Assembly: GCA_965223875.1 (NCBI GenBank)
Contig: OZ245024.1
Coordinates: 236,015-300,014, forward strand
DNA: 64,000 nt
Source of the DNA: Candidatus Multivoradales bacterium
Lineage (GTDB): Bacteria > Acidobacteriota > Thermoanaerobaculia > Multivoradales > JAHEKO01
Direction: 5' to 3'
The notes beneath the pieces are model-generated. The model made no database searches. It saw nothing but the letters and a program-made list of their open reading frames with translations, and had not been told where the DNA came from. Each line of letters starts with the position of its first letter. Positions within the stretch are counted from its first letter, which is position 1. Positions 6,265 through 59,768 of the stretch are shown here, one piece after another. A program made the translations under genes and the position numbers.

Positions 6265-6268
<4 letters not shown>

Positions 6269-21562: not shown

Positions 21563-21638
21563 GCCGACGTAGCTCAGCTGGTAGAGCAGCTCACTCGTAA
21601 TGAGCAGGTCAGCGGTTCGAGTCCGCTCGTCGGCTCCA
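21563..21638 (+). tRNA. tRNA-Thr (anticodon CGT)
   Basis: Cloverleaf: acceptor stem GCCGACG/CGTCGGC, D arm GCTC-AGCTGGTA-GAGC, anticodon stem GCTCA/TGAGC with loop CTCGTAA, T arm AGCGG-TTCGAGT-CCGCT, encoded CCA. Confidence 0.85.
21589..21638 (+). repeat. attL (3' 50 nt of tRNA-Thr)
   Basis: Identical to 30186..30235. Confidence 0.8.
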
Positions 21639-41401: not shown

Positions 41402-42583
41402 TCAGGTGCTCTTCCACCACCAGCGGGGCGCGTTTCTCGAGCCGCCATCGAGAAGTTCGTCGATCCTGAGCATCAGTCGTCGCAGGAGACTCCCCATCAG
41501 ACGGAAGCGGATCCTCTCGATCCATCGCGGATGGTCTCGGTTGTAGGGACAGACACGAATGCAGATCGAGCAGTCGGTCATCTGGGTGACCCAGAAGCCG
41601 AAGCACTTCTCCGCGTCCGTCGTCCACTTCTCCACTCCGGTGACGTTGGAGGTGTTGTGGATCTCCTCGCTGGGCGCCGTTCCGGCGATGGCGCTCGGCG
41701 GGCACTCGTCGGTACAGCGCCGGCAGATCTCGCAGAACTCCCTGACTCCGAAGCGGATCGGCTGGTCGTGCGCCAGCGGGAGGTCGGTGAAGATCTTGCC
41801 GATGCGCAGCCGCGGGCCCATCCCGGGTGCGATGAGCAGGCCGTGGCGGCCGTACTCGCCGAGCCCGGCCTTGATGGCGTAGGGAATGCTCGGGCCGGTG
41901 TCGTTCATGCTGGCGTAGGCGCGGTAGCCGAGGTTGCGAATGTACTGGGCGAGCGCCAGGAGCGTCACCACGTCCATCGAGTACCCGACGCCGGTCGCTG
42001 TACCGCTCAGGGCCGACGGGACCGTCTTGAGCAGGTCGTGGTCCATCTCGTGACAGACGACGATGACCGAGGTCAGATCATCGCCGAGGTCCATCGGGAT
42101 CTCGGCGTCCCTGGAGCGGCTGTAGCTGTGCGAGTAGACCCAGCGCTCGTCGTAGTAGGTGATCCCCACCAGGTCGGCTCCGAAGAGGCGGGCGGCCTTC
42201 TTGATCTCGTGCGACATCACCTTCGGGTCCTCGACCACGCAGCGCTCCCGGGCGCCGACGCGATGGGCCGTGAGGTAGTCGAGGAAGCCCTCGCGTCGAT
42301 CGTCTTCCTCGAGACGTTCGGCGAAGAAGTCGGCGACGTGCCAGCCGGCATTGCGCAGGGCGAAGTCCTTCTGCGCGTAGCCGTCGACCAGGCGCCACTC
42401 GCGTAGCGGTCGCCTGTAGGACTCGTAGAAACGCTCGGCCGCCGGAGTGTGGATCTCCTCGTCCCAGAACGAGCGGCAGAAGATGTCCCTCTTCTGGCTG
42501 AATCGGGAGTAGCGCTCGCTCACCCGGAAACCGGCGTCGGCATCCGAACCGCAACCACCTTCGCAGGTCGTACAGCGGCTCAT
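41402..42583 (-). CDS. reductive dehalogenase / QueG-superfamily (cobalamin-type) double 4Fe-4S protein, cytoplasmic form
   Basis: Two C-terminal ferredoxin motifs: CEICRRCTDECP (Cx2Cx2Cx3CP) and CSICIRVCP (Cx2Cx3CP). There is no Tat signal. The start ATG overlaps the stop of the upstream DltD-like gene (ATGA). Confidence 0.45.
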   Translation of the reverse strand: MSRCTTCEGGCGSDADAGFRVSERYSRFSQKRDIFCRSFWDEEIHTPAAERFYESYRRPLREWRLVDGYAQKDFALRNAGWHVADFFAERLEEDDRREGFLDYLTAHRVGARERCVVEDPKVMSHEIKKAARLFGADLVGITYYDERWVYSHSYSRSRDAEIPMDLGDDLTSVIVVCHEMDHDLLKTVPSALSGTATGVGYSMDVVTLLALAQYIRNLGYRAYASMNDTGPSIPYAIKAGLGEYGRHGLLIAPGMGPRLRIGKIFTDLPLAHDQPIRFGVREFCEICRRCTDECPPSAIAGTAPSEEIHNTSNVTGVEKWTTDAEKCFGFWVTQMTDCSICIRVCPYNRDHPRWIERIRFRLMGSLLRRLMLRIDELLDGGSRNAPRWWWKST

Positions 42584-43758
42584 GGCGTGCCCTCAGTCCC
42601 TACGCTCCGGGTCGGGTCGGCCTCCGCGTCGGAGATCGGGAGTGAGGGAGCCATTCGTTGGGCCAGCTCCGCCATCACCCCGTCGGTGGCGTGCTCGTTG
42701 AGGTGGTGGTCGTAGCGGCCGGCCTGCCAGAGGGGCTCGGTGATCGGAATGAGCTCGAGGTCGAGGCTCTCCGTCAGCCGGTCGATGTTGTTCCAGAACT
42801 GCTCGGAGCTGGCCTGGTAGAGCCGCTCGCCGACCCGGTACACACCGTCCATCTCGGAGGTCTTGTCGCCCTTGTCGACGGCCATCAGGGTGAAGCCAGC
42901 ACCCGCCTCGCCGGCCGCGGATCGCATGGCCAGCAGCAGCTCGCGAGTGAGGTCGATGCCGTAGAGGGTCCGCGGACTGGCCGGCGCCAGCCTGAGAGCG
43001 CGATCGTTCTTCTCGATGGCCAGCCCCTCCGGCAACAGGAGGCCCTGGGCGGCGAGCTCCTCCCACTCGTTGCGTACGGTCTCTCCGGCTTCGAGATCCC
43101 GCTCGGAGAGCGGTTCGTAGGCGGCCGGCAGATAACGCCGTGCCCAGTCGGCGTCGGGTGAGGTCCCGAGCGCCAATTCGAGAAGCGCCCGCAGACGCAG
43201 GCGGGGACTGACGACCTCCCTCATCGTGTGGTTGGGGCCGGCGAGACGCCCGGCGTCGAGCCAGAAGGTCGGCTTCGGCCGGCCATCGATGGGCATGAAG
43301 GTCGGCCAGGTGTTGTCCTTGACGTCGTTGTTGAGGGTCAGCCAGGCGACGACGTGGTCGGCCCGGAAGCGCCGCAGATAGCGCCGCAGCGCGAGGTACT
43401 CCTGGTCCTGCCCGTAGCCGCTCGCGCCGACGCTGAAGACCCGCACCGATCTGCCGATGGCCAGCGACAGATGGTGCTCCAACCGTCGTTCCGGCATCCA
43501 GTGATAGGAGCACGCCTTGGCTTCGACCTGGGAGTCGCCCACCAGCAGCACCACGAAGTCGTCGTCGGTGAACTCGATCGGCTGGCCCCGGTAGCCCATC
43601 TCGTTCTGCTCCACCGCGAGATGAGTATTGAGCCACCCGGTGCGGACCGGCGGGGGCCGGTCGAGCAGTCGCAGACAGACCTCGGCGATGGCGAGGGCGA
43701 AGACGACGCTCGCGAGCGCCAGTGCCGATGTAAGGAATGTCCGTTTCAGGCGGTTCAC
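42580..43758 (-). CDS. membrane-anchored SGNH/GDSL-like hydrolase (DltD-like)
   Basis: N-terminal TM anchor (LTSALALASVVFALAIAEV) followed by block I LLVGDSQVE. The start is uncertain: the GTG at 43758 was chosen to avoid a 91-nt overlap with the carrier protein gene. Confidence 0.55.
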   Translation of the reverse strand: MNRLKRTFLTSALALASVVFALAIAEVCLRLLDRPPPVRTGWLNTHLAVEQNEMGYRGQPIEFTDDDFVVLLVGDSQVEAKACSYHWMPERRLEHHLSLAIGRSVRVFSVGASGYGQDQEYLALRRYLRRFRADHVVAWLTLNNDVKDNTWPTFMPIDGRPKPTFWLDAGRLAGPNHTMREVVSPRLRLRALLELALGTSPDADWARRYLPAAYEPLSERDLEAGETVRNEWEELAAQGLLLPEGLAIEKNDRALRLAPASPRTLYGIDLTRELLLAMRSAAGEAGAGFTLMAVDKGDKTSEMDGVYRVGERLYQASSEQFWNNIDRLTESLDLELIPITEPLWQAGRYDHHLNEHATDGVMAELAQRMAPSLPISDAEADPTRSVGTEGTP

Positions 43759-43777
43759 GGTAGGGGGAGCGAGCGTT

Positions 43778-44025
43778 TCAGCACCCGCCGGCCGTGGAGG
43801 ATTTCGCGTCGACGAAGCGTAGGATCCGCGCGACGCTGTCGAGATTCTCCAGCTGGACGTCCATCGCACCGACCTTGATCCCCTCGGTCGACTCGATGAA
43901 GTTGATGAGCTCGACCATGCTGAACGAGTCCAGAAGCCCGTCGGAGAAGAGAGGAGCGTCGTCGTCGAGCCCGTCGGCCTCGATGCCGAAGCGCTCGGAA
44001 AGATACCGACGGAGCTCGTCTCGCG
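43778..44025 (-). CDS. acyl/D-alanyl carrier protein (DltC-like)
   Basis: 82 aa. Phosphopantetheine-attachment motif LFSDGLLDSFSMVELINFIE. Confidence 0.7.
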
Positions 44026-44031
44026 TCAGGG

Positions 44032-45591
44032 TCATCCGGGGCTTTCGGGCTCTTCGGGGCTCTCGTCGTCCGTCTCCTGACCCCCTCGGAAGGCACGAAT
44101 CACCGCCTTGCGATCGAGCTTGCCGCTCGCCGTGCGCGGCATCCGCCCGGGCCATGGATGAAGCTCGGGAATCATATAGGCGGGCATCCGTCGCCTGCAA
44201 AAGGACGACAGGGCCTTCATGTCGAGCCCTCCCTCCTCCACTTCGACGGCCAGGTGCACCCGCTGTCCGAGCCTGGCGTCATCGACGCCGAAGGCGATCG
44301 CGCCGTCGACGAGCCGGCTGGAATAGGCGATCTCCTCGATCTCGGTGGGACTCATCCGGTAGCCGCTCGACTTGATCATCTCGTCACGTCGCCCTTCGAA
44401 CCAGAGACACCCGTCTTCGTCGCAACGCACGAGATCTCCGCTGTGGACGACCGGACGATCGCCGATCAGCTCCCGGAGGTGCTCGCTGGGTCGGATGCGC
44501 TCGGCGGTCGCTTCGGGAGCGTTCCAGTAGCCGCGCGACACCAGCTTGCCTGCGTGCAGCAGCTCGCCGACCTCGCCCGTCGCACAGAGGCCCCGATCCG
44601 GATCGACGACGTAGATCTGGACGCCGGGAACCGGCCAGCCGATGGCGCCGGTCTTGTCGGCGAAGCGGTCCGGCGGCAGGCTGGTCGATCGGAACGACTC
44701 GGTCAGGCCGTACATCAGGTGGATCGACGTCCCGGGGAAGATCCGGGGCATCCTGGCCAGGGTCGTGTCGGGGATCTTGCCTCCCGTGTTGGTCAGGTAG
44801 CGCAGCGATCCCAGTCGCTCACCGGATTCCTCGAGGTAGCGCACGAGCTCGATCCAGCTGGGCGGCACCAGCGCCAGGCCGGTCACGTCGTGCGATCGAA
44901 CGGTCCGGACGATCTCGGACGGAAACGGCGTCCTCTGCAGGACCAGGGTGCCGCCCGCATGGAGCATCGTGGCCAGTTGATTCAGGCCGTAGTCGAAGCT
45001 CATCGGAAGAAGGCCGAGGATCCGGTCCTCCGGCGCATTGCCGAGATATCCGGCAACGATCTCGGCTCCGTCGACGATGTTGCGATGGGTCAGCATGACG
45101 CCCCTCGGCGAGCCGGTCGACCCCGAGGTGTAGAGCAGCGCGGCCAGATCATCGGGACCCGGGAGCGTCCTCTCGGACGGGCGGTCGTCCGGCAGGGAGC
45201 TCCAGTCCAGGCCCCGTGCCGGATCGACGGCGACGAGCGGGCAGCCCAGTGAGGCCAGTCGCCCGGCCCCGCGGGCGTCGGTGAAGAGCATCGAAAGCTC
45301 GCAGTCCCGGTGGGCATGTGCGACCTGGTGCCGCGTCCAGGCGGGACTGAGGTTGACGAAGACCGCCCCGAGGCGCGCCGCGGCGAGGGTGATGACGGCC
45401 TCGTCGAGGCACTTCGGAAGGTGGATGCCGAGCCGATCCCCGGCTCCGACGCCCTCGTCAGCGAGCCACGAGGCGAGCACCTCGGCCCGATGGTGGAGCT
45501 CGCCATAGGTCAGCGACTCGCGCCCGTCGACCAGGACTGGATGATCGCCGCGGCCAGGGAGCTTCGAGGAGAGCAGTCCGAAGAGAGTCAT
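44032..45591 (-). CDS. AMP-dependent adenylating ligase (DltA-like carrier-protein ligase)
   Basis: A3 core motif LYTSGSTGSPRGV, then YGLTE, GELLHAGKLVSRGYW and the C-terminal PRTASGKLDRKA. The start at 45591 overlaps the MBOAT stop (ATGA). Confidence 0.8.
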   Translation of the reverse strand: MTLFGLLSSKLPGRGDHPVLVDGRESLTYGELHHRAEVLASWLADEGVGAGDRLGIHLPKCLDEAVITLAAARLGAVFVNLSPAWTRHQVAHAHRDCELSMLFTDARGAGRLASLGCPLVAVDPARGLDWSSLPDDRPSERTLPGPDDLAALLYTSGSTGSPRGVMLTHRNIVDGAEIVAGYLGNAPEDRILGLLPMSFDYGLNQLATMLHAGGTLVLQRTPFPSEIVRTVRSHDVTGLALVPPSWIELVRYLEESGERLGSLRYLTNTGGKIPDTTLARMPRIFPGTSIHLMYGLTESFRSTSLPPDRFADKTGAIGWPVPGVQIYVVDPDRGLCATGEVGELLHAGKLVSRGYWNAPEATAERIRPSEHLRELIGDRPVVHSGDLVRCDEDGCLWFEGRRDEMIKSSGYRMSPTEIEEIAYSSRLVDGAIAFGVDDARLGQRVHLAVEVEEGGLDMKALSSFCRRRMPAYMIPELHPWPGRMPRTASGKLDRKAVIRAFRGGQETDDESPEEPESPG

Positions 45592-46796
45592 GCGGGTAGC
45601 TCGACGAAGATCAGCTTGCAGAGGATCCGCAGGGCTCCCCAGAGGCCGCCCTCGGGCTCCGCGATGAGGAACGCCATGCTGCCGCAGACGAAGGCCTGGG
45701 TGAAGACGATCGCCGCGGGACGACCGAGCCGGGAGGCCGGCCTCCGGTCCGAGTGCCTCCGGTAGCGATTCCAGGCCGTGTAGATCGCGATCCCGGTGGC
45801 ATGGTAGAGACCCCAGCCCAGCCTCTGCGGCGTCGCCGCGTGCCACATGCCCATGACGAAGAAGGTGGAATAGAGTGCCACGAGCGGCTGCCGCGTGAGG
45901 CCGATGACGGGCATGTAGACATAGCTCTGGCACCACCCCGAGAGGCTCATGTGCCAGCGGCGCCAGTAGTCGCGGATGTTCGACGCGATCACCGGGAGGT
46001 TGAAGTTCTCTCCGATCTCCAGACCGAAGAGGCGCGAGCAACCGATGACGATGTCCGAATAGGCGCTGAAGTCGAGGTAGATCCACAGGTACATCGTCGC
46101 GACGAAGACCCAGGCGGCGGGCACCGACATGTCGGGGAGGGCCTCTAGGAGCGGGTTGCCCCCGGCCGCGACGACGCGATCCCCCGTCGACGGAGGCACG
46201 AGGCGGGCGGCCAGCAGCCCGGCGAGGACGAACTTCTTGATCAGACCGTGGGCGATCCGGGTCAGACCCACGACGAGGTCGTCTGGGGACCAATGCTCCC
46301 GGCGATTGGCCAGGAAGTGATCGAAGCGTTCGATCGGCCCGGCGCTGAAGATCGGGAAGAGGGTCATGTAGCAGAGAAACTCGGCCAGCGAGTGGGCCGG
46401 CAGGCTGCCGCGACTCACCTCCGCCAGGTAGTGGATGAGCTTGAACGAGTAGTAACTGATCCCCAGCGGGACCATGAGCCGGGTCGCGGGACTGTGACCG
46501 ATCAGACCCTCGATGAGTCCCGGAAGGTACTTGAAGGCCGCGAGGAACCCGACGATCGCGAGAATGAGCGCGAAGAGGAGCCAGAGACGTCCTCCCCTGC
46601 CCCGCTGGGTCAACGGGGCGAGGGCGAAAACGACCAGGGACCAGGCGACGAGAGCGGTCACGCTCCAGGGGGCCACCGTCATCAGGTAGCCGAAGGAGGC
46701 CAACGCCAGGAACCCGGGGCGCAGTCTCACCGGCAGCAGCCAGAAGGCCGGCACCGAGGCCGAGAGAACGAGCCAGAAGGCGCTGCTGTTGATCAT
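45588..46796 (-). CDS. MBOAT-family membrane O-acyltransferase (DltB/AlgI-like)
   Basis: Multi-TM protein with the MBOAT catalytic-His region DYWRRWHMSLSGW. Confidence 0.85.
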   Translation of the reverse strand: MINSSAFWLVLSASVPAFWLLPVRLRPGFLALASFGYLMTVAPWSVTALVAWSLVVFALAPLTQRGRGGRLWLLFALILAIVGFLAAFKYLPGLIEGLIGHSPATRLMVPLGISYYSFKLIHYLAEVSRGSLPAHSLAEFLCYMTLFPIFSAGPIERFDHFLANRREHWSPDDLVVGLTRIAHGLIKKFVLAGLLAARLVPPSTGDRVVAAGGNPLLEALPDMSVPAAWVFVATMYLWIYLDFSAYSDIVIGCSRLFGLEIGENFNLPVIASNIRDYWRRWHMSLSGWCQSYVYMPVIGLTRQPLVALYSTFFVMGMWHAATPQRLGWGLYHATGIAIYTAWNRYRRHSDRRPASRLGRPAAIVFTQAFVCGSMAFLIAEPEGGLWGALRILCKLIFVELPA

Positions 46797-46833
46797 TGGC
46801 TCAGCGGGTCCATCTTCGCAGGAGGATCCGGTC

Positions 46834-46965
46834 TCAGAATCCCTGGTAGCGGAAGATCCGTATCCCGGACTCGAGGGTGAGCAGGTTCACCAGTGCCCAG
46901 GTGAGCAGGGTGCCGAGCACGAGGCCCTGAAGAAGGGCGCCGAGAAGGTGCCAGGAACGCTTCAT
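46834..46965 (-). CDS. DltX-like micropeptide (43 aa), not in the ORF track
   Basis: MKRSWHLLGALLQGLVLGTLLTWALVNLLTLESGIRIFRYQGF has a single TM helix and a C-terminal F-x-Y-x-x-F motif, as in Gram-positive DltX. Its ATG overlaps the stop of the upstream gene (ATGA). It lies 37 nt upstream of the MBOAT gene. Confidence 0.55.
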   Translation of the reverse strand: MKRSWHLLGALLQGLVLGTLLTWALVNLLTLESGIRIFRYQGF

Positions 46966-48056
46966 CTCCCGCCCTCCCCCGCATCCAGGAGGTCACCCGT
47001 TCGCAGTCCGAGGACGCGGGTGAAGCGGCGCATCGCCGGCCAGCGGTAGAGGTGGTTGAGGTCGTAGAAGTCCTCCTGCGCCAGGGCAGCCTCCCTCTGC
47101 GGGTTCCAGTAGTGTGCGTCGTTGGCCCGGGCGAATGCCGCCAGGCGACTCCGGTGCCGGTCGAGGAAGGCCTCGCCATACACCTCGGCCGTGGCGCGCG
47201 GTGATAGAGGCGACTCGAACAACACCACCTCGACCGCTCCGCGCTCCTTCAGCTCGGCGATGATGGCTTCGATCGTCCGCAGACAGGCGGCGACGTTGGT
47301 CTCGTAGTCGGTCTCGATGCGCTCTCTGAGCCGCGGCGCGACGTCGTCGAAGACGCCAGGGGGCATCGGCCGCTTGCGCCGCAGGAAGGGATGGACATCC
47401 GGGCTCACCGGACCGTTGGCGAGGTTGCGCGCCAGGTGGGTCATCCGGGGCAGGAAGAAGTGGCGGTTGGCCCAGAAATAGTTGCCCGATTCCCGTTCGA
47501 AGGCCATGCCGAGCGATCCGGGGTCACCGAGCTCCCGGGCCTCGGCGAGCATGCCCGGGCGAACACCGGGGCCGAGTGCCATGCTCGACGGCGTCAGACC
47601 GAGTAGCACGACACCCTCGAACCGCTCGGGAAGGCGCTCGACGATCGAGAGGCTGCCCTCGAGAGACTGCCCCCAACTCGCCAGGTTCCAGACGCTGGGT
47701 TCGGCCCCGCTCGAAGTCGCCACGACCCGGCGCAGCGACGCGGAGCTGGTGATCGCCTCGGTCACCGCCGAGCCACCGAGCACGACGACCACCGGCCGCC
47801 GCGGCGTGACCCGCGACACGGCGGCGAGGCGGGCGGTCAGGAAAAGATCCCCGTCGGATCCGTCGCGCGCGAAGTAGCGGTGCGCTTCGGAGGCGAGGAG
47901 AGCCGGGGTGATCAGCGCCATGCAGAGGCCGAGCGCGACGAGGGGTAGCGCCAGGGTCAGGGCGAGCGCGCCGGCTGACGGCTGCGTAAGACCACGGATG
48001 AAGGCGCGCCGGGCCGAGTCAGAACCGTCGGGCGGCTCCGGATCAGGGCGGCGCAT
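46962..48056 (-). CDS. membrane-anchored extracytoplasmic protein, possibly a divergent SGNH/AlgX-like esterase; first gene of the Dlt-like operon
   Basis: N-terminal TM (ALALTLALPLVALGLCMALI). VVVLGGSAV could be a degenerate GDS block. Translationally coupled to the DltX-like ORF. Confidence 0.45.
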   Translation of the reverse strand: MRRPDPEPPDGSDSARRAFIRGLTQPSAGALALTLALPLVALGLCMALITPALLASEAHRYFARDGSDGDLFLTARLAAVSRVTPRRPVVVVLGGSAVTEAITSSASLRRVVATSSGAEPSVWNLASWGQSLEGSLSIVERLPERFEGVVLLGLTPSSMALGPGVRPGMLAEARELGDPGSLGMAFERESGNYFWANRHFFLPRMTHLARNLANGPVSPDVHPFLRRKRPMPPGVFDDVAPRLRERIETDYETNVAACLRTIEAIIAELKERGAVEVVLFESPLSPRATAEVYGEAFLDRHRSRLAAFARANDAHYWNPQREAALAQEDFYDLNHLYRWPAMRRFTRVLGLRTGDLLDAGEGGR

Positions 48057-48104
48057 CGCCGGATTCTACCGGCGCCGCGGGTAGAATCGCAGCGACCTCC
48101 CGAT

Positions 48105-50156
48105 ATGAGCGCGCAGAGGGTCATGGACGAGCTCGCTTCCTATCTGCCGCTCCTGGTCGCGGTCGTCGCCCTGGTGTTCCTGCAGCGGACGCGTTTCTGG
48201 GGCGCTGTGCTAGCCCAATTCGGTCAGCTCGCCGCGCGGCGGAGGCTGGCGGTCCTTCTCGTGGGTGCTGTCGCGACGGTTCATTTCGCGGCTCTGGCTC
48301 TCTATCACTGGCCGCTGCCGATCTATGCCGACGAATTCAGCTATCTCCTGATGGCGGACACCTTCTCCGAAGGCCGCCTGACCAACCCGACGCCCCCCCT
48401 CCCCTACCTGCTCTGGGCACCCGACGTCATCTTCGAGCCCACCTACCAGTCGAAGTACCCGCCGGCCCAGGGGGTCGCGCTCGCCCTGGGCGGTCTGCTC
48501 GGTGATCCCCTGGTCGGAGTCTGGCTGAGCATGGCGGCGGCGGCCGCGGCGACCTGCTGGATGATGCAGGCCTGGCTGACGCCCCGCTGGGCGCTCGTCG
48601 GCGGACTTCTCGTCGCCACCCACAAGGCGATCGGCACCTTCTGGGGAGCGACCTACTTCGGCGGCGCGATGGCGATGCTCGGCGGCGCCCTCCTCTTCGG
48701 CGGTCTGCCGCGACTCTTCCGCCGGCAGAGCATCGGCCCAGCACCGGCGATCGGCTCAGCACCGGCGATCGGCCCGGCACTGGCGATCGGCCCGGCGCTG
48801 GCGATTGGCACGGGCCTCGCCCTTCTCGCCAACAGCAGGCCGTTCGAGGGACTCGTGGCGAGCCTTCCGGCCGCCTTCGTGATGCTCGTCTGGCTGGTTC
48901 GCGAGCGACGCTTCGCTCGGGGCGTGGTCCTTCGCCGCGTGCTCGTGCCGATCGCTGTCGTCCTGGGACTGGTCGGGCTGGGGATGGGGACCTACCATCG
49001 AGCCGTCACCGGGAATCCGCTGCGAATGCCCTACCAGGTGTTTCTCGAGAGCAGCAACGTCGCCAACGTCGCGCTGCCGGGCGAGCCCCAGGCGCGCAAG
49101 GCGGCGGAGCCTCCGGCTCTCGTCGAGCGACACTTCAAGTTCTTCACTCTCGGCGGTGATCCACACCTGTGGCTGCCGTTGCTGCTTCTACCGCTCGTCG
49201 TTCGGCGCGACCGGTGGATGCAGCTCGCCCTGGTGACGACTCTGCTCACCTACCTGGCCGTCTGGTTCACCGTTCTCGCCTCGGCGCACTACGCGGCGCC
49301 GGTGACCGCCCTGGTCTTCACTCTCTACCTTCAGAGCGTCCGTCACCTCCGCGTACTCCTGCGCCGTTGGCGGCTCGCCTTCCAGGTCTTCGTCGCCGTC
49401 TTTCTGACCTTCTGGGCACTGCAACTGTACGACTCGCCACGATTCCACGCGACGAAGATCCCTCCCGGGCACACCCACGAGTTCGCCCTTCTGCGCGCGG
49501 AGATCAACGAGGAGCTCTCTGAGCGTGGCGGCAGGCATCTCGTGGTGGTGCCCTGGGACAACGTGACGCCGCGGGTTCTCGCCTGGGTCCACAATCCTCC
49601 CGTTCCCGAACAAGCGGAGATCCTCTGGGCCTGGGAGGGGCCCGGACTGGCCGAGCGGTTCGGCGTTCGCACGGTGTGGCGGCTCGACGAGACCTCCTGG
49701 CCCCCCACCCTCGTTCCCTCCTCTAGCTCCCGGACCGCCTGGATCCTGCGCGGAGGCGGCGCACAGTCGACCCTGACGGTCGACGACGAGCGGGCGGTCG
49801 CGGTCGCAATCGGCGCCGCGGGCCCGGAGGCCCCGCCGGCCCGCCTCGTGCACGGACACCCCCCGCTACGAACCGGCGTACGTTACAGGATCGCATTCCG
49901 CGTGCGCTCGGACAGCGCGCGATCGATCGAGGTCCGGGTCGCGCGCGGCGACGGCCGAGAGCTCGGCGACGTTCGCTACCGACAGCACGAGCAGGTGGGG
50001 GTCGACTGGAAGGAGGTCGTCCTCGCCTTCGAGTCCGATCGCTTCCTCGAGCATGCCGCGGTCGAGATCGATCTCGGGAGCGGCGCCGGCAGGATCGAGA
50101 TCGAGGGATTCTCGATTCGCCCGGGCGATACGGCCGGCACCGAATCCGCTATCTGA
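48105..50156 (+). CDS. GT-C-like polytopic membrane protein (putative glycan/lipid-linked sugar transferase) with a C-terminal CBM-like beta-sandwich domain
   Basis: About 12 TM helices. An acidic DEFSY motif in the first extracytoplasmic loop, as in GT-C enzymes (ArnT/PMT DE motifs), and the conserved EPTYQSKYPPAQG. The C-terminal domain is soluble (RYRIAFRVRSD..IEVRV..IEIEGFSIRP). It has a paralog at 60608..62632. Confidence 0.5.
   Translation: MSAQRVMDELASYLPLLVAVVALVFLQRTRFWGAVLAQFGQLAARRRLAVLLVGAVATVHFAALALYHWPLPIYADEFSYLLMADTFSEGRLTNPTPPLPYLLWAPDVIFEPTYQSKYPPAQGVALALGGLLGDPLVGVWLSMAAAAAATCWMMQAWLTPRWALVGGLLVATHKAIGTFWGATYFGGAMAMLGGALLFGGLPRLFRRQSIGPAPAIGSAPAIGPALAIGPALAIGTGLALLANSRPFEGLVASLPAAFVMLVWLVRERRFARGVVLRRVLVPIAVVLGLVGLGMGTYHRAVTGNPLRMPYQVFLESSNVANVALPGEPQARKAAEPPALVERHFKFFTLGGDPHLWLPLLLLPLVVRRDRWMQLALVTTLLTYLAVWFTVLASAHYAAPVTALVFTLYLQSVRHLRVLLRRWRLAFQVFVAVFLTFWALQLYDSPRFHATKIPPGHTHEFALLRAEINEELSERGGRHLVVVPWDNVTPRVLAWVHNPPVPEQAEILWAWEGPGLAERFGVRTVWRLDETSWPPTLVPSSSSRTAWILRGGGAQSTLTVDDERAVAVAIGAAGPEAPPARLVHGHPPLRTGVRYRIAFRVRSDSARSIEVRVARGDGRELGDVRYRQHEQVGVDWKEVVLAFESDRFLEHAAVEIDLGSGAGRIEIEGFSIRPGDTAGTESAI
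48748..48819 (+). repeat. in-frame 18-nt x4 tandem repeat ((A/S)P(A/L)AIG) inside the GT-C-like gene
   Basis: ccagcaccggcgatcggc / tcagcaccggcgatcggc / ccggcactggcgatcggc / ccggcgctggcgattggc. The paralog at 60608..62632 lacks it. Confidence 0.7.
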
Positions 50157-50174
50157 TTGCAGTACGCTACGTCG

Positions 50175-51194
50175 ATGGCGAGCGAACCCTCTCGGCCGAC
50201 ATCGGTCTCCACCGTGGAGCGGCGTCAACAGAGCGCGTCGGAGACGGCGCGACTGGTCTCGGTCGTCATCCCAGCGAGGAACGAGGTCGGCACGATCGCC
50301 GACGCGATCTCGGCGGTTCTGGCGCAGGAGGTCGCCGGTGTGAGGTTGGAGGTCGTCATGGTCGATGACGGATCGACCGACGGGACCGTCGAGGCCGCCG
50401 AGGCGGCGGGAGCGCGAGTGCTCCGTCTCGGTACCGAGGGAGAGGGCGGCAGCCCGGCAGCGGCACGCAATCGCGGCGCCGAGCAGACCGGGGGCGATCC
50501 GATCATCTTCCTCGATGCCGACTGCACGCCGCTCGAGGGTTGGCTGGAAGCGATCCTCCAGGCGCACGACGGCGGAGCCGCGGTCGTCGGCGGGGCGCTC
50601 GACATGCCTCCGGGGCTCTCCCCCACCGCTCGCTGCGACTATTACTGCGGCTGGTACCTCATCCACAGTGGATGCCCGGCCGGCGACGTTCCGCACCACC
50701 CGCCGCCCTGTCTGAGCGTCCGTCGTGAGGCCTTCTTCAGTACGTCCCGGTTCAGCGAGGATCCGCCGCTGGTCTACACCAATGAGGAGCGCGCCTGGCA
50801 GGGAGAGCTACTGCGCCGCGGCGAGCGGATCTACTTCCAGCCTCGGGCGGTCGCCTACCACTACAATCGGTCCGGCTTCCTCAATCTGTTGAAGCGCAAC
50901 TATCGCTGGGCCTATACGGCGCTCGAGGCGAAGGGGCCGAGCGGCTCGGCGCGGTACTCCTGGCTCTACCGGCATCCGCGACTCCTGATCGTCGGTAGCC
51001 TGCCCTTGGCCGGGGCGCAGAGTCTCTACATTCTCGGCTGCTGGCTGAAGGCCGGCGTTTGGGAGCCGCTCTGGATGTTCCCGGGAATCCTCGTCTCGCG
51101 GGTCGCCTACGCGGCGGGGATGTCGGTCGGTGGAATCCGCTGGCTGCGCCGTGGACGGTCCGGACCGGCGGCCAAGGGCCCGCGTTGGGTATGA
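50175..51194 (+). CDS. family 2 glycosyltransferase
   Basis: VSVVIPARNE .. VVMVDDGSTDGT .. FLDADC (DxD). Starts 17 nt after the GT-C-like gene stop. Confidence 0.75.
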   Translation: MASEPSRPTSVSTVERRQQSASETARLVSVVIPARNEVGTIADAISAVLAQEVAGVRLEVVMVDDGSTDGTVEAAEAAGARVLRLGTEGEGGSPAAARNRGAEQTGGDPIIFLDADCTPLEGWLEAILQAHDGGAAVVGGALDMPPGLSPTARCDYYCGWYLIHSGCPAGDVPHHPPPCLSVRREAFFSTSRFSEDPPLVYTNEERAWQGELLRRGERIYFQPRAVAYHYNRSGFLNLLKRNYRWAYTALEAKGPSGSARYSWLYRHPRLLIVGSLPLAGAQSLYILGCWLKAGVWEPLWMFPGILVSRVAYAAGMSVGGIRWLRRGRSGPAAKGPRWV

Positions 51195-52207
51195 GCCGGG
51201 CCGACCTCACCGTAGCCATCTGCACCCGTGACCGGCCCGACGTGCTCGGCCGCGCCCTCGACTCCCTGAACGGGCAGTCCCGGCCGCCTCTCGAGATCCT
51301 GGTGGTGGACAACGCTCCGAGCGACGATGCGACCCGTCGACAGGTCGAGTCGCGCCACCCGGCCGGCGATGGGAGCCCCGCGGTGCGCTATGTCCGTGAG
51401 TCCGTGGCGGGTCTCGACTTCGCGCGCAACCGCGCCCTGGCCGAGGCGCGTGGTGAGATGGTGGCGTTCATCGACGACGATGCGGTCGCCGACAGCGGCT
51501 GGGTGGAGGCGATCGCCGAGGCCTACGGGGAAGGCCGCCGGGTCGGGGCCTGCTCGGGCCGCATCGAGCCTCTGGAGCTCGAGACGGCCGGCCAGAAGCT
51601 CTTCGAGTCGAACGGCGGTCTCTTCGCCGGTGGAGATCGCCGGGAGTCCATTCCCTCCGACCGGATCCGCTCGCGCTGGCACCGCTGGGTTCCGATGATC
51701 GCCTGGGCCGCCGGCTCCGGAAGTGGCTGCAATCTGTCGGTTCGTCGCGATCTCGCCCTCGAGCTGGGAGGCTTCGACGAGGCCCTGGATCTGGGCGCCG
51801 TACTGCCCGGAGGGGGCGACAACGACATGCTCTGGAGGATCCTCGAGTCCGGTGCGGAGGTGGTCTACGAACCGAGGGCGACGGTTCGTCACCAGCATCG
51901 GCGAGAGCTCGACCGGGTCGAGGAGCAGATCCTGGGACATCAACGCGCCCTCGTCGCTCTGACCACGAAAGCCCTTGCGAAGGCACGCGGTCGTGAGCGG
52001 CTCTCCGTCGGCCTGTTCCTGGTCTGGCGATTGCTCAAGCCGGGGGTGCGACTGCTGCGTCGGGCCGTCGGACGGGATCCGCTGCCGGCGCCGCTTCTGC
52101 TCGGCGTGTGGCGGCACTGCTGGCTCGGTCTCAGCGCCTACGCCGAGGGCGTGGAGGTGGCCGCCGAGCGGCGAAGCGCGGCGCTCGGGTCGCAAACGAG
52201 CTCGTAG
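51191..52207 (+). CDS. family 2 glycosyltransferase
   Basis: TVAICTRDRPD .. LVVDNAPSDD .. AFIDDDAV. ATGA overlap with the preceding GT2. Confidence 0.75.
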   Translation: MSRADLTVAICTRDRPDVLGRALDSLNGQSRPPLEILVVDNAPSDDATRRQVESRHPAGDGSPAVRYVRESVAGLDFARNRALAEARGEMVAFIDDDAVADSGWVEAIAEAYGEGRRVGACSGRIEPLELETAGQKLFESNGGLFAGGDRRESIPSDRIRSRWHRWVPMIAWAAGSGSGCNLSVRRDLALELGGFDEALDLGAVLPGGGDNDMLWRILESGAEVVYEPRATVRHQHRRELDRVEEQILGHQRALVALTTKALAKARGRERLSVGLFLVWRLLKPGVRLLRRAVGRDPLPAPLLLGVWRHCWLGLSAYAEGVEVAAERRSAALGSQTSS

Positions 52208-52277
52208 GCCCCGGGTCGTAGTCTGCACGATTCATCAGGCTCCGTCGACGCAGGAGGAGGCTGGTGAATCCTGCAGG

Positions 52278-54905
52278 CTAGTACCCGGTGGGCTGACGGA
52301 GCTTGCGAACGATCAGCGCGACGGCGACCAGCAGGATGGGCAGGTAGAGCAGCCCGAGAGGCCCTGCGAGAGCGCCCAGCAGGTCGCCCACCTTGTCTCC
52401 GGCGGAGAGATCCGAGCGAACGATGGCGCCCAACGCGATGAGCGCGTCGACCGGATTCCAGCTCTTCGCCGCCCGGACGACCTCCTTCATCGCTTCGGGG
52501 GTGCCGAAGCCTCCGAGAGCCCGAACGGCGCTGCGACGGGCCTCGCCCTCGCCCCAGCGGGCAATCGACGACAGCGGCTCCACAGCGCGCTCGTCACCCG
52601 TCGCGACCAGGGCGGCGCAGGTCTCGCGGGAGCCGGCGACGCAATCGAGGACGAGGGACCCGAGGGGCTCACCGAAGGCGTCGAGGGCCTTGCGGGCCTC
52701 TGCCACGACCTCCGGGTCGGTATCGTCCATCGCGCCGACGAGCGCGTCGATCGCCTCTTGGCCTCCGATGACCGACAGAGCCCAGACGGCGGCCAGGCGG
52801 ACATCGACGTCGCGATCGCGCAGTCGTCGCGCGAGCACGGGCAGGGATTCCTCGGCTCTCAGCCGGCCCAGCGCCCAGGTGGAGGCCATGCGGACTCGGT
52901 CCACGGGGTCGGTCAGCAGCTCGGTCAGTCGCGCGGTGGCCCGATCGTCCCGGTTGCGCCCCACGTACCAGGCGCCGATCTCGCGCATCCTGGCCTCGCG
53001 ATCCTGCAGGGTACCGAGCAGGACGTCGTCGACCTCGGGTCCGCCGATCGATGCGAGCGCCTCGGCCGCCGCGATGCGGACACCGACCCGGACATCGTGG
53101 ACGTTCTCGAGCAGCGGACCGATCGACGTATCGTCTCCCACCCTCGCGAGGGTGGCCAGAGCGGTGAGTCGGATGCGCAGATCGGTCTCCTCGAGCGCCT
53201 CGTTCATCAGGGAGGTCGTCACCGGAGGACCGATCATGGCGAGAGCTCGAAGGGCCGAGCGGCGGGTTTGGATGTGGCTCTCCCGGTAGGCGTCGATCAG
53301 CGGCTTGATGGTTCGAGCCTGGTGCCGCGAGGCGAGAGCCATGATCGCCGCATCGTTGCCGTCGAGGGCGAGGAAGATGCGCCGGCCCACCGGATCCTCG
53401 AGGGCCGCGAGCGCGCGGGCGATCGTCTCCCGCGCACCAGCGTCGCGATCCCCCATCGCCCGGACCAGTGCCGCGATGGCGCTCTTGTCGCCGATCGCTC
53501 CGAGGGCCGTGGCCACGGCTTCGCGAACCCCCGGATCGGGGTCGTCCAGCGCCTCGATCAGCGGCTCGACCGCCCGCGGGTCTTCGAGGGCGCCGAGAGC
53601 CGCGGCGGCCGATGTCCGCACGACCACATCCTCGTTGCGGAGCAGGACGAGAAGGTCGGAGATCGACTCGGTCTCGCCGAGCTGGCCCAGGGCCGCCGCG
53701 GTGTGGATCTTGTTCTCGGTCCGCAGATCGTCCAGATCGTCCTTGAGGTTGGCCAGGAATCGCTCGCGATCGATCGCCTCGAGGGCCGCCGTGACGGTGG
53801 GACGCTCCTCGGAGGAACCGTTCCAGAAAGCCTCCATCAGAGGTTCGAAGGTCACCGGATCCGCACGAACGCGAAGGGTCTGGGCCGCGGCGATGCGGAC
53901 GCGCGGACTGATGTCGTCCAAAGTGTCGAGGATCGGTCGTAGGACCCGGGGGTCGTCGACCTCGGCGACCCTCGCCATGGCCTCTTCATCGCCATCCAGG
54001 GCGTCAGCGACCAGGCGACTCCAGGGAACTCCGAGATCCTCGAGGGAGATCGCGCAGCTGTGGCGCAGCCGTGGAACGGAATAGCCCATGCAGACGATCA
54101 GAGGGCGTACTGCCTCTTCCCCCTGCAGACGCGCCAGGCCGAGTGCGGCGGCGGCGCGGGCGTCGGGATCCTCCTCGTCATCGGCGAGAGTCTGGGCGAA
54201 GGGACCCGCGGCGCGGACGTAGCCACCGTCGACGATCTCTTCCAGGGCTTCATCCGAGCCGCGGAGAGCTTCCAGAATCAGACCGGCAACGGGAGCGCCG
54301 AGCCGGTCGAGGGCCTGGAGGGAGGCCTCTCGGACGACCCGACTCGGATCCGACGCCAGGTCGACGAGCTGTGGGATCGAGCCGTCGTCGCCGAGGCGCG
54401 CCAGAGCCTCGGCCGTTGCGGCTCGAACCGAGACCGCCGGATCGCCGAGCGCCACCGTGACGGGTCCGATGGCGCGTGGATCCCTGAGCAGGCCGAGGGT
54501 TCGGGCCGCCGCGGCGCGGACCTCGATGACCGGATGGTCGAGGGCGGTGACGAAAGCTGGAAGGACCTCCGGCGCGCCGAGCTCGGAGAGCTCGATCATC
54601 GACAGCAGCGAGCCCTGCAGGCACTCGCAGACCAGGCTCCCGAAGCCGACGCCACGGGTCGTCAGCTCGCGCGAGGCTTTCTGGCAGGCATCGTTCTCCG
54701 GTCCGCCGAGGGCGGCGATGAGCTCCCCGACGCTGACCTCCCCGACGCTGACCTCGTCGACGCTGGCCTCCTCCTGGGACCGGAGCGGCTCCTGCGAGCG
54801 GGTCGGCCAGGGTCCTACGAGCGCGAGAAGGAGCGTCGCCGCGGCGACCAGAAGGGGCGGACGATGGCGGGCGAAGTGGCCTGAGCGGTGTGCTTTCGAG
54901 CTCAT
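52278..54905 (-). CDS. HEAT-repeat (PBS-lyase-type) protein, 875 aa, with an N-terminal signal peptide and a C-terminal TM anchor
   Basis: More than 20 HEAT-like repeats (xVRxxAAxALGxLGDPRAVxPL). C-terminal LLYLPILLVAVALIV. The start overlaps the stop of the upstream GT4 gene (ATGA). Confidence 0.7.
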   Translation of the reverse strand: MSSKAHRSGHFARHRPPLLVAAATLLLALVGPWPTRSQEPLRSQEEASVDEVSVGEVSVGELIAALGGPENDACQKASRELTTRGVGFGSLVCECLQGSLLSMIELSELGAPEVLPAFVTALDHPVIEVRAAAARTLGLLRDPRAIGPVTVALGDPAVSVRAATAEALARLGDDGSIPQLVDLASDPSRVVREASLQALDRLGAPVAGLILEALRGSDEALEEIVDGGYVRAAGPFAQTLADDEEDPDARAAAALGLARLQGEEAVRPLIVCMGYSVPRLRHSCAISLEDLGVPWSRLVADALDGDEEAMARVAEVDDPRVLRPILDTLDDISPRVRIAAAQTLRVRADPVTFEPLMEAFWNGSSEERPTVTAALEAIDRERFLANLKDDLDDLRTENKIHTAAALGQLGETESISDLLVLLRNEDVVVRTSAAAALGALEDPRAVEPLIEALDDPDPGVREAVATALGAIGDKSAIAALVRAMGDRDAGARETIARALAALEDPVGRRIFLALDGNDAAIMALASRHQARTIKPLIDAYRESHIQTRRSALRALAMIGPPVTTSLMNEALEETDLRIRLTALATLARVGDDTSIGPLLENVHDVRVGVRIAAAEALASIGGPEVDDVLLGTLQDREARMREIGAWYVGRNRDDRATARLTELLTDPVDRVRMASTWALGRLRAEESLPVLARRLRDRDVDVRLAAVWALSVIGGQEAIDALVGAMDDTDPEVVAEARKALDAFGEPLGSLVLDCVAGSRETCAALVATGDERAVEPLSSIARWGEGEARRSAVRALGGFGTPEAMKEVVRAAKSWNPVDALIALGAIVRSDLSAGDKVGDLLGALAGPLGLLYLPILLVAVALIVRKLRQPTGY

Positions 54906-56101: not shown

Positions 56102-56132
56102 GGCTCCCGGAGCGTCGCGCCCCCGGGGCGCG

Positions 56133-56810: not shown

Positions 56811-56835
56811 GTCTCGGTTCTCTCCTGACCCGAGC

Positions 56836-58986: not shown

Positions 58987-59020
58987 TCCGCGTCGGGGAG
59001 CCGTGGCATGCCTTCGGCGG

Positions 59021-59752: not shown

Positions 59753-59768
59753 CGGCCGCGCGGTGGCG

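Follow-up and report, generated by a model that had tools for sequence, protein, structure and literature searches.

Judged from its sequence, a locus in the genome of Candidatus Multivoradales bacterium (Acidobacteriota) probably encodes a carrier-dependent, split MBOAT-microprotein-SGNH system that carries a non-acetyl acyl group out of the cytoplasm onto a polymer of the periplasm or outer surface. The group transferred to this surface polymer is probably amino-acid-like rather than acetate. The original prediction was of a Dlt-like operon, and the logic of ligase, carrier, MBOAT, SGNH protein and microprotein stands. However, all five core proteins fail the curated DltX, DltA, DltB, DltC and DltD models of Pfam and NCBIfam. 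With every component below the Dlt equivalog cutoffs, the locus is best described as Dlt-like in mechanism, not as a dlt operon.

The cassette and its genomic setting

The window, the whole stretch of 64,000 nucleotides that was analysed, contains all seven of the predicted minus-strand genes (Table 1). They had been described as chained by ATGA start/stop overlaps, which are found at four of the six junctions (g1/g2, g3/g4, g4/g5 and g6/g7), whereas g2/g3 and g5/g6 are separated by gaps of 37 nt and 19 nt. The order is not X-B-A-C-D, as first read, but D′-X-B-A-C, followed by a second SGNH gene (g6) and an RDH homologue (g7). HMM searches bore out the domain calls for g3 (MBOAT), g4 (AMP-binding), g5 (PP-binding) and g7 (reductive dehalogenase), and the predicted high-GC, outer-membrane setting was also confirmed: the surrounding window has a GC of about 0.68 and includes genes for an OmpA-like β-barrel protein and Wzm/Wzt, two GT2 genes and two full-length GT4 genes. 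The host seems to possess an outer membrane, and teichoic acid would not be expected there.

Table 1. Genes of the locus and the adjoining glycan region, in coordinates of the window.
Feature	Coordinates	Strand	Length and assignment
g1	48056..46962	-	364 aa; membrane-anchored periplasmic SGNH protein, proposed DltD counterpart
g2	46965..46834	-	43 aa; microprotein, C-terminal FRYQGF, proposed acyl shuttle
g3	46796..45588	-	402 aa; short MBOAT, proposed transmembrane acyl-transfer catalyst
g4	45591..44032	-	519 aa; stand-alone adenylating enzyme, proposed donor activation and g5 loading
g5	44035..43778	-	85 aa; carrier protein
g6	43758 (GTG)..42580	-	392 aa; second membrane-anchored SGNH protein
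g7	42583..41402	-	393 aa; reductive-dehalogenase-family corrinoid/Fe-S protein
Glycan-assembly locus	48105..60611	.	adjoins cassette; candidate acceptor pathway, by proximity only

Twelve cassette loci were examined, reached through MBOAT homologues with 46–96% identity. Genes g1–g5 are a conserved cassette, and g6 and g7 are local add-ons. D′, X, B and the ligase are present in all twelve loci and the carrier in eleven; the remaining locus, L081, is a 96%-identical twin contig of the window with the same neighbourhood, and its contig stops within the ligase. The order D′-X-B-ligase-carrier is kept in ten loci, while the ligase/carrier end is rearranged or interrupted in L171 and L173. The hosts include Nitrospirota, a Gammaproteobacterium, a likely Hydrogenedentes contig and an anammox-type contig. 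Synteny thus recovers the five-gene core in related loci but not the seven-gene arrangement, as g6 and g7 are missing from the ten other loci that reach past the carrier (L081, ending inside the ligase, is uninformative here).

A divergent glycan locus begins 48 bp upstream of the cassette, an arrangement retained in the twin contig. It encodes a 683-aa membrane protein with no family match, two GT2, a HEAT-repeat protein, two GT4, Wzt and Wzm. The surroundings of the cassette vary by locus, with GT87, sulfotransferases, NeuB, a Wzx-like flippase or nothing glycan-related, and many sister loci lie among glycan or sulfation genes. In the six loci compared, none of the genes that adjoin the cassette in the window turns up next to it again. 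The Wzm/Wzt-exported glycan, the candidate substrate of the original prediction, is a candidate acceptor by proximity only.

Components of the proposed transfer chain

The microprotein g2 has one transmembrane helix, and its C-terminus carries FXYXXF, the acyl-shuttle motif of DltX, in line with the published DltX mechanism (PMC12148441). The Pfam DltX model does not match g2. All 13 homologous microproteins from the 12 loci end in F-x-Y-x-x-[FY], with F38 and Y40 invariant; R39 is invariant in the nine microproteins of alignment A5 but replaced by Y or L in L170 and L171. Tyr40 is proposed as the acyl-accepting residue. The GC content at the three codon positions (0.64/0.41/0.82) is in line with the coding pattern of the genome, and with this coding-like composition and conservation in every related locus examined, g2 is a real gene. 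Conservation of the microprotein had been named beforehand as a point on which the prediction could fail, and it is found in 12 of 12 related loci.

The MBOAT, g3, matches the Pfam MBOAT model (E 3e-19). DltB is its sole NCBIfam match (181 bits, cutoff 375) and its sole PDB sequence match (6bug/8jem, E 3e-33), in which the WHxxxS and WH motifs line up; His282 and His319 are conserved, and the catalytic histidines align with those of DltB. There are 541 homologues at E<1e-20, and alignment A1 is made from 30 g3 homologues of 385–406 aa. No shuttle motif is found at the C-terminus of g3, and an FxYxxF tail occurs in one of 120 cassette-type MBOATs (the best 120 of the 541) versus 75 of 78 generic MBOATs. 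This is the same division as that between DltB/DltX and PatA/AlgI. By raw score, g3 reaches 118 bits with DltB and 150–164 bits with fused MBOATs and is thus no nearer to DltB, so that the split architecture may be convergent.

The ligase, g4, matches AMP-binding (Pfam, E 5e-80), and in NCBIfam it comes closest to TIGR03098 (488 bits, cutoff 592), ahead of TIGR01733 (265 bits). DltA models are absent among its 25 best NCBIfam matches, in agreement with the earlier suspicion that the donor may not be D-alanine. The best single-domain PDB relatives are VinN (3wvn, 210.7 bits) and SlgN1 (4gr5, 172 bits). Because g4 is nearest to TIGR03098 and, among solved structures, to VinN, an acidic or β-type amino acid is suggested as the donor rather than D-alanine. 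The specificity residues, placed by motif anchoring, are Asp235, Tyr236, Thr301, an Arg in a shortened β13-β14 loop and Lys517, and the pocket looks unlike a D-alanine enzyme's. In the VinN/VinL/VinO system and SlgN1, Asp235 is likewise conserved, position 236 is bulky and aromatic, position 301 carries a hydroxyl group and the shortened loop has a basic residue; VinN binds 3-methyl-aspartate through the analogous pocket features (PMC11253843). Position 235 is Val in L082 and Pro in L086 and L089, and because the sister ligases vary here, the donor is predicted to differ between cassette loci.

The carrier, g5, matches PP-binding (Pfam, E 2.5e-7), with Ser37, in LLDSFS, as the phosphopantetheine attachment site. 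Its nearest PDB sequences are type II peptidyl carrier proteins, among them PigG and PltL. The similarity to DltC is weak among PDB sequences (E 0.0035) and reaches 28.6 bits against a cutoff of 68 in NCBIfam, where the best match is an ornithine-lipid ACP, far under cutoff. The pattern LFSxGLLDSF...NLDS is kept in seven aligned loci. In L084 and L172, the ligase is a DltA-like NRPS-type enzyme, and the carrier is still conserved (41–51% identity); its persistence despite the ligase swap fits a carrier that would need to fit the MBOAT.

The SGNH protein g1 has no significant Pfam or NCBIfam match, the DltD Pfam model included. Its family alignment has an invariant SGNH signature, G94-x-S96 and D332-x-x-H335, and Ser96, Asp332 and His335 are proposed as the catalytic set. 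The structural model of g1, built from a four-sequence alignment and with pLDDT below 50 at residues 49–83 and 169–227, has an SGNH fold and gives its longest structural alignments with DltD, although plain SGNH esterases score as high. g1 is proposed as the final acyltransferase and functional counterpart of DltD.

Of the two add-ons, g7 is a lineage-specific accessory that matches reductive dehalogenase model TIGR02486 at 186 bits, over the cutoff of 160, and resembles PceA (E 4e-53) and NpRdhA (E 5e-32); no TAT signal is recognisable. The other, g6, has no significant Pfam or NCBIfam match and belongs to a family of 822 cluster representatives with invariant G74-D75-S76, G116, N144 and H352; 8 of 29 members give weak GDSL matches. 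Its relatives in 80 metagenome loci usually neighbour a small membrane protein and a ~611-aa protein, whose N-terminus we take to be carbamoyltransferase-like; neither g1–g5 nor g7 homologues are found beside them. As a lineage-specific accessory, g6 might act as a second transferase in a relay, or as an esterase with an editing role.

Proposed mechanism and alternatives

In the proposed pathway, inferred from homology at each step, g4 would adenylate a carboxylic acid, probably bearing an amino group and possibly an acidic or β-type amino acid, and thioesterify it to the phosphopantetheine on Ser37 of g5. Loaded g5 would dock at the cytoplasmic face of g3, whose conserved His319 would transfer the acyl group across the membrane onto Tyr40 of g2. 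The acyl-tyrosine tail of g2 would then swing to Ser96 of g1, which would esterify the acceptor. The group may be relayed to a second acceptor, or removed, by g6.

The periplasmic roles could be assigned differently. The original prediction took g6 as the DltD equivalent, receiving the acyl group from the microprotein, with g1 as an accessory periplasmic protein. It is g6 that has the most canonical GDS...N...H signature and that follows the carrier gene, the position dltD has in dltXABCD. Synteny shows the reverse: g6 is absent from the other cassette loci extending past the carrier and its 80 metagenome relatives never adjoin an MBOAT, ligase or carrier, while g1 and the microprotein are an invariant pair, often translationally coupled, and duplicated as one unit in Ca. 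Nitronereus. The g6 assignment is accordingly very improbable. Only slightly less so is the idea that g1 is an editing, de-acylating esterase like Ape1 and that the microprotein hands its acyl group straight to the acceptor, or to some other protein. Against it, g1 is the sole periplasmic catalytic partner present in every locus, it shares its size and N-terminal anchor with DltD, and an SGNH transferase is needed in published MBOAT systems (PMC12148441).

It is likewise unlikely that the MBOAT, microprotein and g1 carry out acetyl-CoA-dependent O-acetylation, with the ligase and carrier co-transcribed but serving a separate cytoplasmic pathway of lipid or small-molecule synthesis. Most bacterial MBOAT-SGNH systems do use acetyl-CoA (PMC12148441), the family matched by the ligase is named “acyl-CoA ligase”, and the distant ornithine-lipid ACP match of g5 points the same way. 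However, this MBOAT clade comes with both ligase and carrier in 11 of the 12 loci and, in the truncated L081, with the ligase; in the window they are ATGA-coupled to the MBOAT; the carrier family is retained although the ligase type changes; and Dlt, the sole characterised MBOAT system with a separate microprotein, is also carrier-dependent (PMC12148441). A tentative but real possibility is that the machinery works as proposed on another acceptor, such as lipid A/core, peptidoglycan, a lipoprotein, an outer-membrane protein or a polysaccharide encoded elsewhere. The changing neighbourhoods of the cassette favour this, whereas the closeness of the divergent glycan locus, shared with the twin contig, and the glycan or sulfation genes around many sister loci speak for the glycan.

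Relation to known systems

PatA/PatB, AlgI/AlgJ/AlgX and WssH/WssI also combine an MBOAT with a periplasmic SGNH partner in diderms, and such acetyl-CoA-dependent systems share the FxYxxF tyrosine shuttle chemistry (PMC12148441). In raw sequence, g3 is related to these MBOATs (30–37% identity) as closely as it is to DltB, but they carry the shuttle motif on their own C-terminus, and the systems have no ligase or carrier. The dra genes of Bordetella pertussis are recognisable dltA, dltB and dltD homologues and incorporate D-alanine. The cassette differs from dra in its ligase family and in D′ and X proteins that escape existing models. In PMC4448142, which cites Taneja 2013, dra is a precedent for envelope modification by a dlt-type locus in a Gram-negative bacterium.

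The exosortase-A (PEP-CTERM/EpsH1)-associated gene set of ligase, ACP and PLP-decarboxylase has related enzymes: TIGR03098 is the best match of g4 and of the L082, L086 and L088 ligases (488–531 bits), the fourth sister ligase scanned, from L084, being of a different type, and a decarboxylase in L088 best matches TIGR03099 (368 bits). These scores lie under the cutoffs of 592 and 478, both models are functionally uncharacterised “hypoth_equivalog” families, and no exosortase model matched the window proteins scanned by Pfam and NCBIfam (most of 1–30 kb lay outside the scan).

In Vibrio cholerae, AlmEFG modifies lipid A with glycine; AlmG is a cytoplasmic-face lipid A acyltransferase, and the system is not known to include an MBOAT, microprotein or SGNH protein. 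Its likeness to the cassette lies in Gram-negative envelope aminoacylation through a DltA-like ligase and a carrier (PMC11253843). VinN/VinL/VinO and SlgN1 represent stand-alone 3-methyl-aspartate adenylation, ACP loading and decarboxylation. The ACP-then-decarboxylase logic is seen again in L088, while the window has no such decarboxylase. Unlike the cassette, VinN and SlgN1 supply assembly lines for polyketides or macrolactams rather than a membrane MBOAT.

DltXABCD of Firmicutes shares all five roles and the split layout with the cassette. Both have an MBOAT of about 400 aa that lacks the additional C-terminal helices, with the FxYxxF motif on a single-pass microprotein of its own; both also use an adenylating enzyme with a discrete carrier, and an extracytoplasmic SGNH protein anchored at its N-terminus. 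DltXABCD differs in gene order (X-A-B-C-D), in ligase family and in the equivalog cutoffs that the window proteins fall short of. By its sequence, the operon appears to be a Gram-negative equivalent of the Gram-positive teichoic-acid D-alanylation machinery, and its five-gene core is found again in several bacterial phyla.

Operon layout and the recurrent cassette

All seven of the minus-strand genes that had been predicted are present, numbered here g1 to g7 in the order of transcription (see the table). They were thought to be chained throughout by ATGA start/stop overlaps, and such overlaps do occur at four of the six junctions (g1/g2, g3/g4, g4/g5 and g6/g7), whereas g2 and g3 are separated by 37 nt and g5 and g6 by 19 nt. 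Searches of Pfam and NCBIfam assigned the MBOAT (g3), AMP-binding (g4), PP-binding (g5) and reductive-dehalogenase (g7) families, but gave no significant match for g1, g2 and g6. The surroundings are also as described, with a divergent glycan locus on one side and an OmpA-like β-barrel protein on the other. Since SMC, AspRS and a type IV pilus ATPase are present, the window is chromosomal.

Table. Features of the operon, its surroundings and the loci compared with it
Feature	Contig or locus	Coordinates	Strand	Size	Remarks
g1–g7	window	41402–48056	minus		seven genes
g1	window		minus	364 aa	SGNH protein; N-terminal transmembrane segment
g2	window		minus	43 aa	microprotein; C-terminus FRYQGF
g3	window		minus	402 aa	MBOAT
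g4	window		minus	519 aa	AMP-binding enzyme (ligase)
g5	window		minus	85 aa	PP-binding carrier
g6	window	GTG start at 43758	minus	392 aa	second SGNH protein; N-terminal transmembrane segment
g7	window		minus	393 aa	reductive-dehalogenase family
Intergenic spacer	window	48057–48104		48 bp	between divergent start codons of g1 and the membrane protein gene
Membrane protein gene	window	48105–50156		683 aa	no Pfam or NCBIfam match
HEAT-repeat protein gene	window	52278–54905		875 aa	among glycosyltransferase genes
Glycan-locus gene	window	56133–56810		225 aa	no Pfam or NCBIfam match
Glycan-locus gene	window	60608–62632		674 aa	no Pfam or NCBIfam match
tRNA-Thr (CGT)	window	21563–21638			sole Rfam/ARAGORN match in the window
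Two g1-like/microprotein pairs, then MBOAT	L084/L085 (Ca. Nitronereus thalassa, GCA_032191465.1)	6753–9979			43-aa FRYQGF microproteins
NRPS-type ligase	L084	11226–12848			FDLSV, YGPTE
NRPS-type ligase	L172 (CP023454.1)	9193–10794			FDLSV, YGPTE
GT87-family glycosyltransferase	L086	13118–14377			directly after carrier
GT87-family glycosyltransferase	L089	13199–14449			directly after carrier
PLP-dependent decarboxylase	L088	13080–14342			straight after carrier
Second-MBOAT gene set	L003 (Anaerolineaceae MAG)	2249–6754	minus		weak g1-family match
g6-family locus, example	L096	3688–5520			
g6-family locus, example	L162	9233–9646			

The glycan locus encodes the 683-aa membrane protein, two GT2 and two GT4 glycosyltransferases, the HEAT-repeat protein and Wzt/Wzm. 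The 683-aa protein is likewise without a match among PDB sequences. The spacer between this gene and g1 contains no recognisable sigma-70-like promoter; either start codon may therefore be misplaced, or the promoters may be of an unconventional kind. A promoter and terminator scan gave no promoters and no more terminators than chance would produce.

Homologues of the MBOAT are numerous. At E<1e-20, 541 were found, the best 120 of which are 45–96% identical to g3, and those that carry names come from Nitrospirota, Planctomycetota, Hydrogenedentes and Gammaproteobacteria. The 30 MBOATs that were aligned are 385–406 aa long. Genomic context was compared for eleven loci with g3 homologues besides the window. 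In all eleven, a g1-like gene (344–396 aa, no Pfam domain) is followed by an ORF of 42–49 aa and then by the MBOAT. All eleven also contain an AMP-binding enzyme, together with a carrier of 79–86 aa wherever the contig extends to it; L081, a near-identical twin of the window contig, stops within the ligase, and its carrier lies beyond the end. Nine of the eleven keep the gene order of the window. The other two are L171, with an FGE-sulfatase gene between the MBOAT and the ligase, and L173, in which the carrier is followed by a sulfotransferase and then the ligase. Homology to the window genes was confirmed by tblastn for nine loci, with identities outside the twin contig of 26–34% for g1, 47–60% for g2 and 48–56% for g3. 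The cassette loci are attributed to Nitrospirota, Gammaproteobacteria, probably Hydrogenedentes, and one anammox-type contig, and Planctomycetota names are found on further MBOAT homologues.

A synteny search had been proposed for the predicted arrangement, and it is the five-gene part, g1 to g5, that recurs in all eleven related loci (in L081 seen only into the ligase). Homologues of g6 and g7 were found in none of the compared loci that extend past the carrier, and none of the other window neighbours recurs beside the cassette in the six loci compared. The two extra genes are g6 and g7, not g1, with which the cassette begins, and they are local passengers or add-ons. The observation behind the original prediction is real and more than chance, and its interpretation is right in kind, with the D role placed on the wrong gene.

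g6 represents a family of 822 cluster representatives. The Ser, Gly, Asn and His blocks (GDS76, G116, N144 and H352) show no variation across 29 sequences of this family, which places g6 in the SGNH hydrolase superfamily; GDSL matches in Pfam are weak and occur in eight of the 29. Its relation to the g1 family is only remote (hhalign E 1e-4, blocks I–III). The g6-family profile found nothing meaningful among PDB sequences, and a single-sequence AF2 model (pLDDT 39.7) is too poor for use. Homologues of g1–g5 or g7 occur in none of 80 metagenome loci of the g6 family. In these loci (L090–L169), the g6-type gene usually has as downstream neighbours the genes of a protein of about 611 aa, putatively carbamoyltransferase-like, and of a membrane protein of about 138 aa, putatively SxtJ-like, often amid GT2, GT4 and epimerase genes. 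Judged by its family matches, g7 is a genuine reductive-dehalogenase homologue (TIGR02486, 186 bits, above the cutoff of 160; a Fer4_16 match; PceA, E 4e-53). No TAT signal was seen by eye at its N-terminus, and it has no conserved link with the cassette in the loci compared.

The proposed D, X and B components

The role of DltD had been given to g6, and g1 was taken for an extra. The DltD counterpart is instead probably g1; g6 is missing from the compared loci that extend past the carrier. An invariant G94-x-S96 and D332-x-x-H335, equivalent to SGNH blocks I and V, are shared by nine g1-family sequences, six of which also give weak matches to Lipase_GDSL_2. The DltD model of Pfam does not match g1, the g1-family profile found nothing meaningful among PDB sequences, and no g1 homologues were found on plasmids. 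Word-indexed searches with g1 gave two proteins for the single sequence and four for the profile, and the AF2 model was built on a 4-sequence alignment. This model (pLDDT 70, pTM 0.68) has a confident core, with residues 49–83 and 169–227 poorly modelled. In all, g1 shows an SGNH fold, an N-terminal anchor, the invariant Ser/Asp/His set and structural alignments of DltD length. This supports g1 as a membrane-anchored SGNH protein of DltD size, which would fit a transferase or an esterase alike.

In Ca. Nitronereus thalassa, a single MBOAT is preceded by two successive g1-like/microprotein gene pairs, which suggests that two transferases, perhaps with two acceptors, are supplied by one MBOAT.

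The predicted DltX-like peptide, g2, was expected to be conserved in orthologous loci, and a microprotein is indeed present in every related locus compared. All thirteen of these proteins begin with a basic stretch, continue with a single hydrophobic helix and end in (R/K)(I/L)F-x-Y-x-x-(F/Y) just before the stop codon, with tails such as FRYQGF, FRYQAF, FRYEGY, FYYQAF, FLYQAF and FRYQNF. F38 and Y40 are invariant in all thirteen, while R39 is invariant in the nine of the microprotein alignment and is replaced by Y or L in L170 and L171. The microproteins of L086 and L173 were overlooked by gene callers and recovered from the DNA, and the codon composition of g2 is coding-like. By the positive-inside rule, the N-terminus of g2 would be cytoplasmic and its tail periplasmic. 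None of nine microproteins matches the Pfam DltX model at E≤10, a search in which HMMER filters may hide very weak matches, so g2 resembles DltX in architecture and motif and cannot be detected as a member of its family. In DltX, the FXYXXF sequence has been described as an “acyl shuttle”, whose tyrosine carries D-alanine from DltB to DltD (PMC12148441).

In other bacterial MBOATs, the same hexapeptide is fused at the protein’s own C-terminus, on two extra helices (PMC12148441). Generic AlgI/PatA-type MBOATs, 30–37% identical to the g3 query, were taken as a control set from a profile search of genome contigs (L001–L080), and no member of the g3 clade was among the genome-contig matches listed for that profile. 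With the tail motif defined as [FYW]xYxx[FYW] within the last 25 residues, it was found in 75 of the 78 generic MBOATs, as against one of the best 120 of the 541 g3 homologues. Generic tails typically read ...PFIYFRF or ...FIYFQF, and where a row aligns almost to the end of g3, the generic protein is about 60–70 residues longer. This contrast indicates that the cassette MBOATs share the split design of DltB. The generic set, drawn from very diverse bacteria, also independently confirms the published rule that the motif is fused.

Among PDB sequences, g3 matches only DltB (6bug, E 3e-33), where the two conserved histidine motifs line up, and its sole NCBIfam match is the DltB model TIGR04091 (181 bits, below the cutoff of 375). 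Its raw score is nevertheless not higher for DltB (118 bits) than for the fused MBOATs (150–164 bits). Orthology with DltB is thus not established by these scores, and the split may be of independent origin.

Ligase, carrier and acyl donor

In NCBIfam, g4 scores highest against TIGR03098 (488 bits, below the cutoff of 592), a hypothetical equivalog described as an exosortase-A-associated “acyl-CoA ligase”, and reaches 265 bits against the amino-acid adenylation domain model. DltA models are absent from its 25 best NCBIfam matches, the 25th of which scores 152.8 bits. Among single-domain PDB relatives, VinN (210.7 bits) ranks first, followed by SlgN1 (172 bits); these enzymes load discrete carrier proteins. 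The two are stand-alone and are listed with 3-methyl-aspartate as the substrate that they activate (PMC11253843). A reading of g4 as closest to a glycine-activating domain, from a match to LgrA (303 bits), was dropped, that score being the sum over two A domains, each at about 150 bits.

An analysis of the pocket against DltA had been proposed; the residues were read by anchoring on the A4, A5 and A10 motifs and compared with VinN. They are Asp235, Tyr236, Asn239, Leu278, Thr299, Thr301, Met322, Arg330 (or 331), Ser and Lys517, and just past the A5 motif g4 lacks one residue relative to LgrA-A1 and two relative to LgrA-A2. Substrate recognition by VinN involves the equivalent Asp, a bulky Phe at 236, Ser at 301 and a Lys-Arg in a β13–β14 loop that is one residue shorter (PMC11253843). 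The resemblance to VinN points, with low confidence, to an amino-bearing donor, possibly an acidic or β-type amino acid. The pocket residues and the closest relatives of g4 argue against D-alanine, in keeping with the original suggestion that the donor may be another group.

The ligases of other loci are not all of this type. The A4 motif is FDYG(L/M) in the window, L087, L088 and L171, and YVYGLSQ in L082. In L086 and L089, SAPWG replaces FD(Y)G, so that Asp235 is missing, and these are the two loci in which the carrier is directly followed by a GT87-family membrane glycosyltransferase; the type of donor and the accessory gene thus seem to change together. L084 and L172 have an NRPS-type ligase in place of the TIGR03098 type, which in L084 scores above the TIGR01733 cutoff, with DltA as second-best family (273 bits). 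The D, X, B and carrier genes are kept in both despite the other ligase, which looks like module swapping. To judge from the ligases, the donor varies across the cassette family.

The carrier g5 falls below the cutoffs of the DltC models (NF003464, 28.6 bits against 68; TIGR01688, 23.5 against 52). Its identity of 41–51% (tblastn) in the eight loci that extend to the carrier is maintained through these changes of ligase, which fits a carrier that has to suit the MBOAT and an exchangeable loading enzyme.

Other enzymes are added in single loci. The decarboxylase of L088 has TIGR03099 as its best match (368 bits, below the cutoff), which ties the cassette to the uncharacterised PEP-CTERM ligase/ACP/decarboxylase set, and in L087 a PALP enzyme fused to a GNAT domain is found. 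L003 has a different arrangement, in which a weak g1-family match (E 2e-6) is followed by a second MBOAT, then a carrier and an enzyme of the fatty-acyl-AMP-ligase type; the same scheme may be used there with a lipid donor.

The proposed relay and its acceptor

A Dlt-type relay is the best-supported reading of the cassette, with steps modelled on homology to Dlt and on work with PatAB. The ligase g4 would load an acyl group on g5, and g3 would hand it to Tyr40 of g2. From there it would pass to Ser96 of g1, which would esterify a periplasmic or surface acceptor.

Like dltXABCD, the cassette has an MBOAT without fused FxYxxF helices and carries the motif on a separate microprotein. It would work alike, yet none of its proteins meets the curated DltX, A, B or C cutoffs, and it differs in gene order, ligase family and diderm host. 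The Bordetella dra locus, as outlined in PMC4448142, is a Gram-negative dlt-like precedent. From systems of the PatAB/AlgIJFX type, the cassette is set apart by its split motif and its carrier dependence: g3 lacks the tail motif, and the ligase and carrier genes are ATGA-coupled downstream. It differs from the TIGR03098 system in the below-cutoff score of g4 and in that the scan of window proteins, as far as it went, turned up no exosortase. According to the literature, Dlt is alone among MBOAT acylation pathways in having a microprotein of the DltX kind and a carrier protein (PMC12148441), and no published description of the cassette was found in the literature on Dlt-like MBOATs or on the exosortase ACP/decarboxylase.

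The adjacent Wzm/Wzt glycan, proposed as a candidate substrate, is a reasonable acceptor by proximity alone, being close and divergent, with 48 bp between the starts, and kept in the twin contig. None of the window neighbours is seen again beside the cassette in the six loci that were compared. Genes for sulfotransferases adjoin the cassette in five of twelve loci (L084, L087, L088, L172 and L173), and sulfatase-related genes lie beside it in three more (the FGE-sulfatase of L171 and sulfatases in L082 and L086), which hints at sulfated glycans as a recurrent context.

A broader proposal, made tentatively and with rather less than even confidence, is that the cassette is an undescribed, phylum-spanning diderm platform. 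It would consist of a fixed core (the g1-type SGNH protein, the DltX-like microprotein, a short MBOAT and a dedicated carrier), swappable VinN/TIGR03098-like or DltA-like ligases, and recruited tailoring enzymes (PLP decarboxylase, PALP-GNAT fusion and sulfotransferases), and would esterify surface glycans with varied amino-acid-derived groups. Surface charge and ester decorations influence antimicrobial-peptide resistance, phage adsorption and the properties of the biofilm matrix. If the proposal is true, the long-unexplained exosortase-associated ligase/ACP/decarboxylase family would gain its first function. The cassette would be a second MBOAT system with a microprotein and a carrier, after Dlt. 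If the relay model holds, there would be a testable path to the function of the TIGR03098/TIGR03099 genes and an annotation handle for two unrecognised families, that of g1 and that of the microprotein, of which one is frequently overlooked in gene calling, and the tyrosine shuttle would reach to aminoacyl-type decoration of Gram-negative envelopes.
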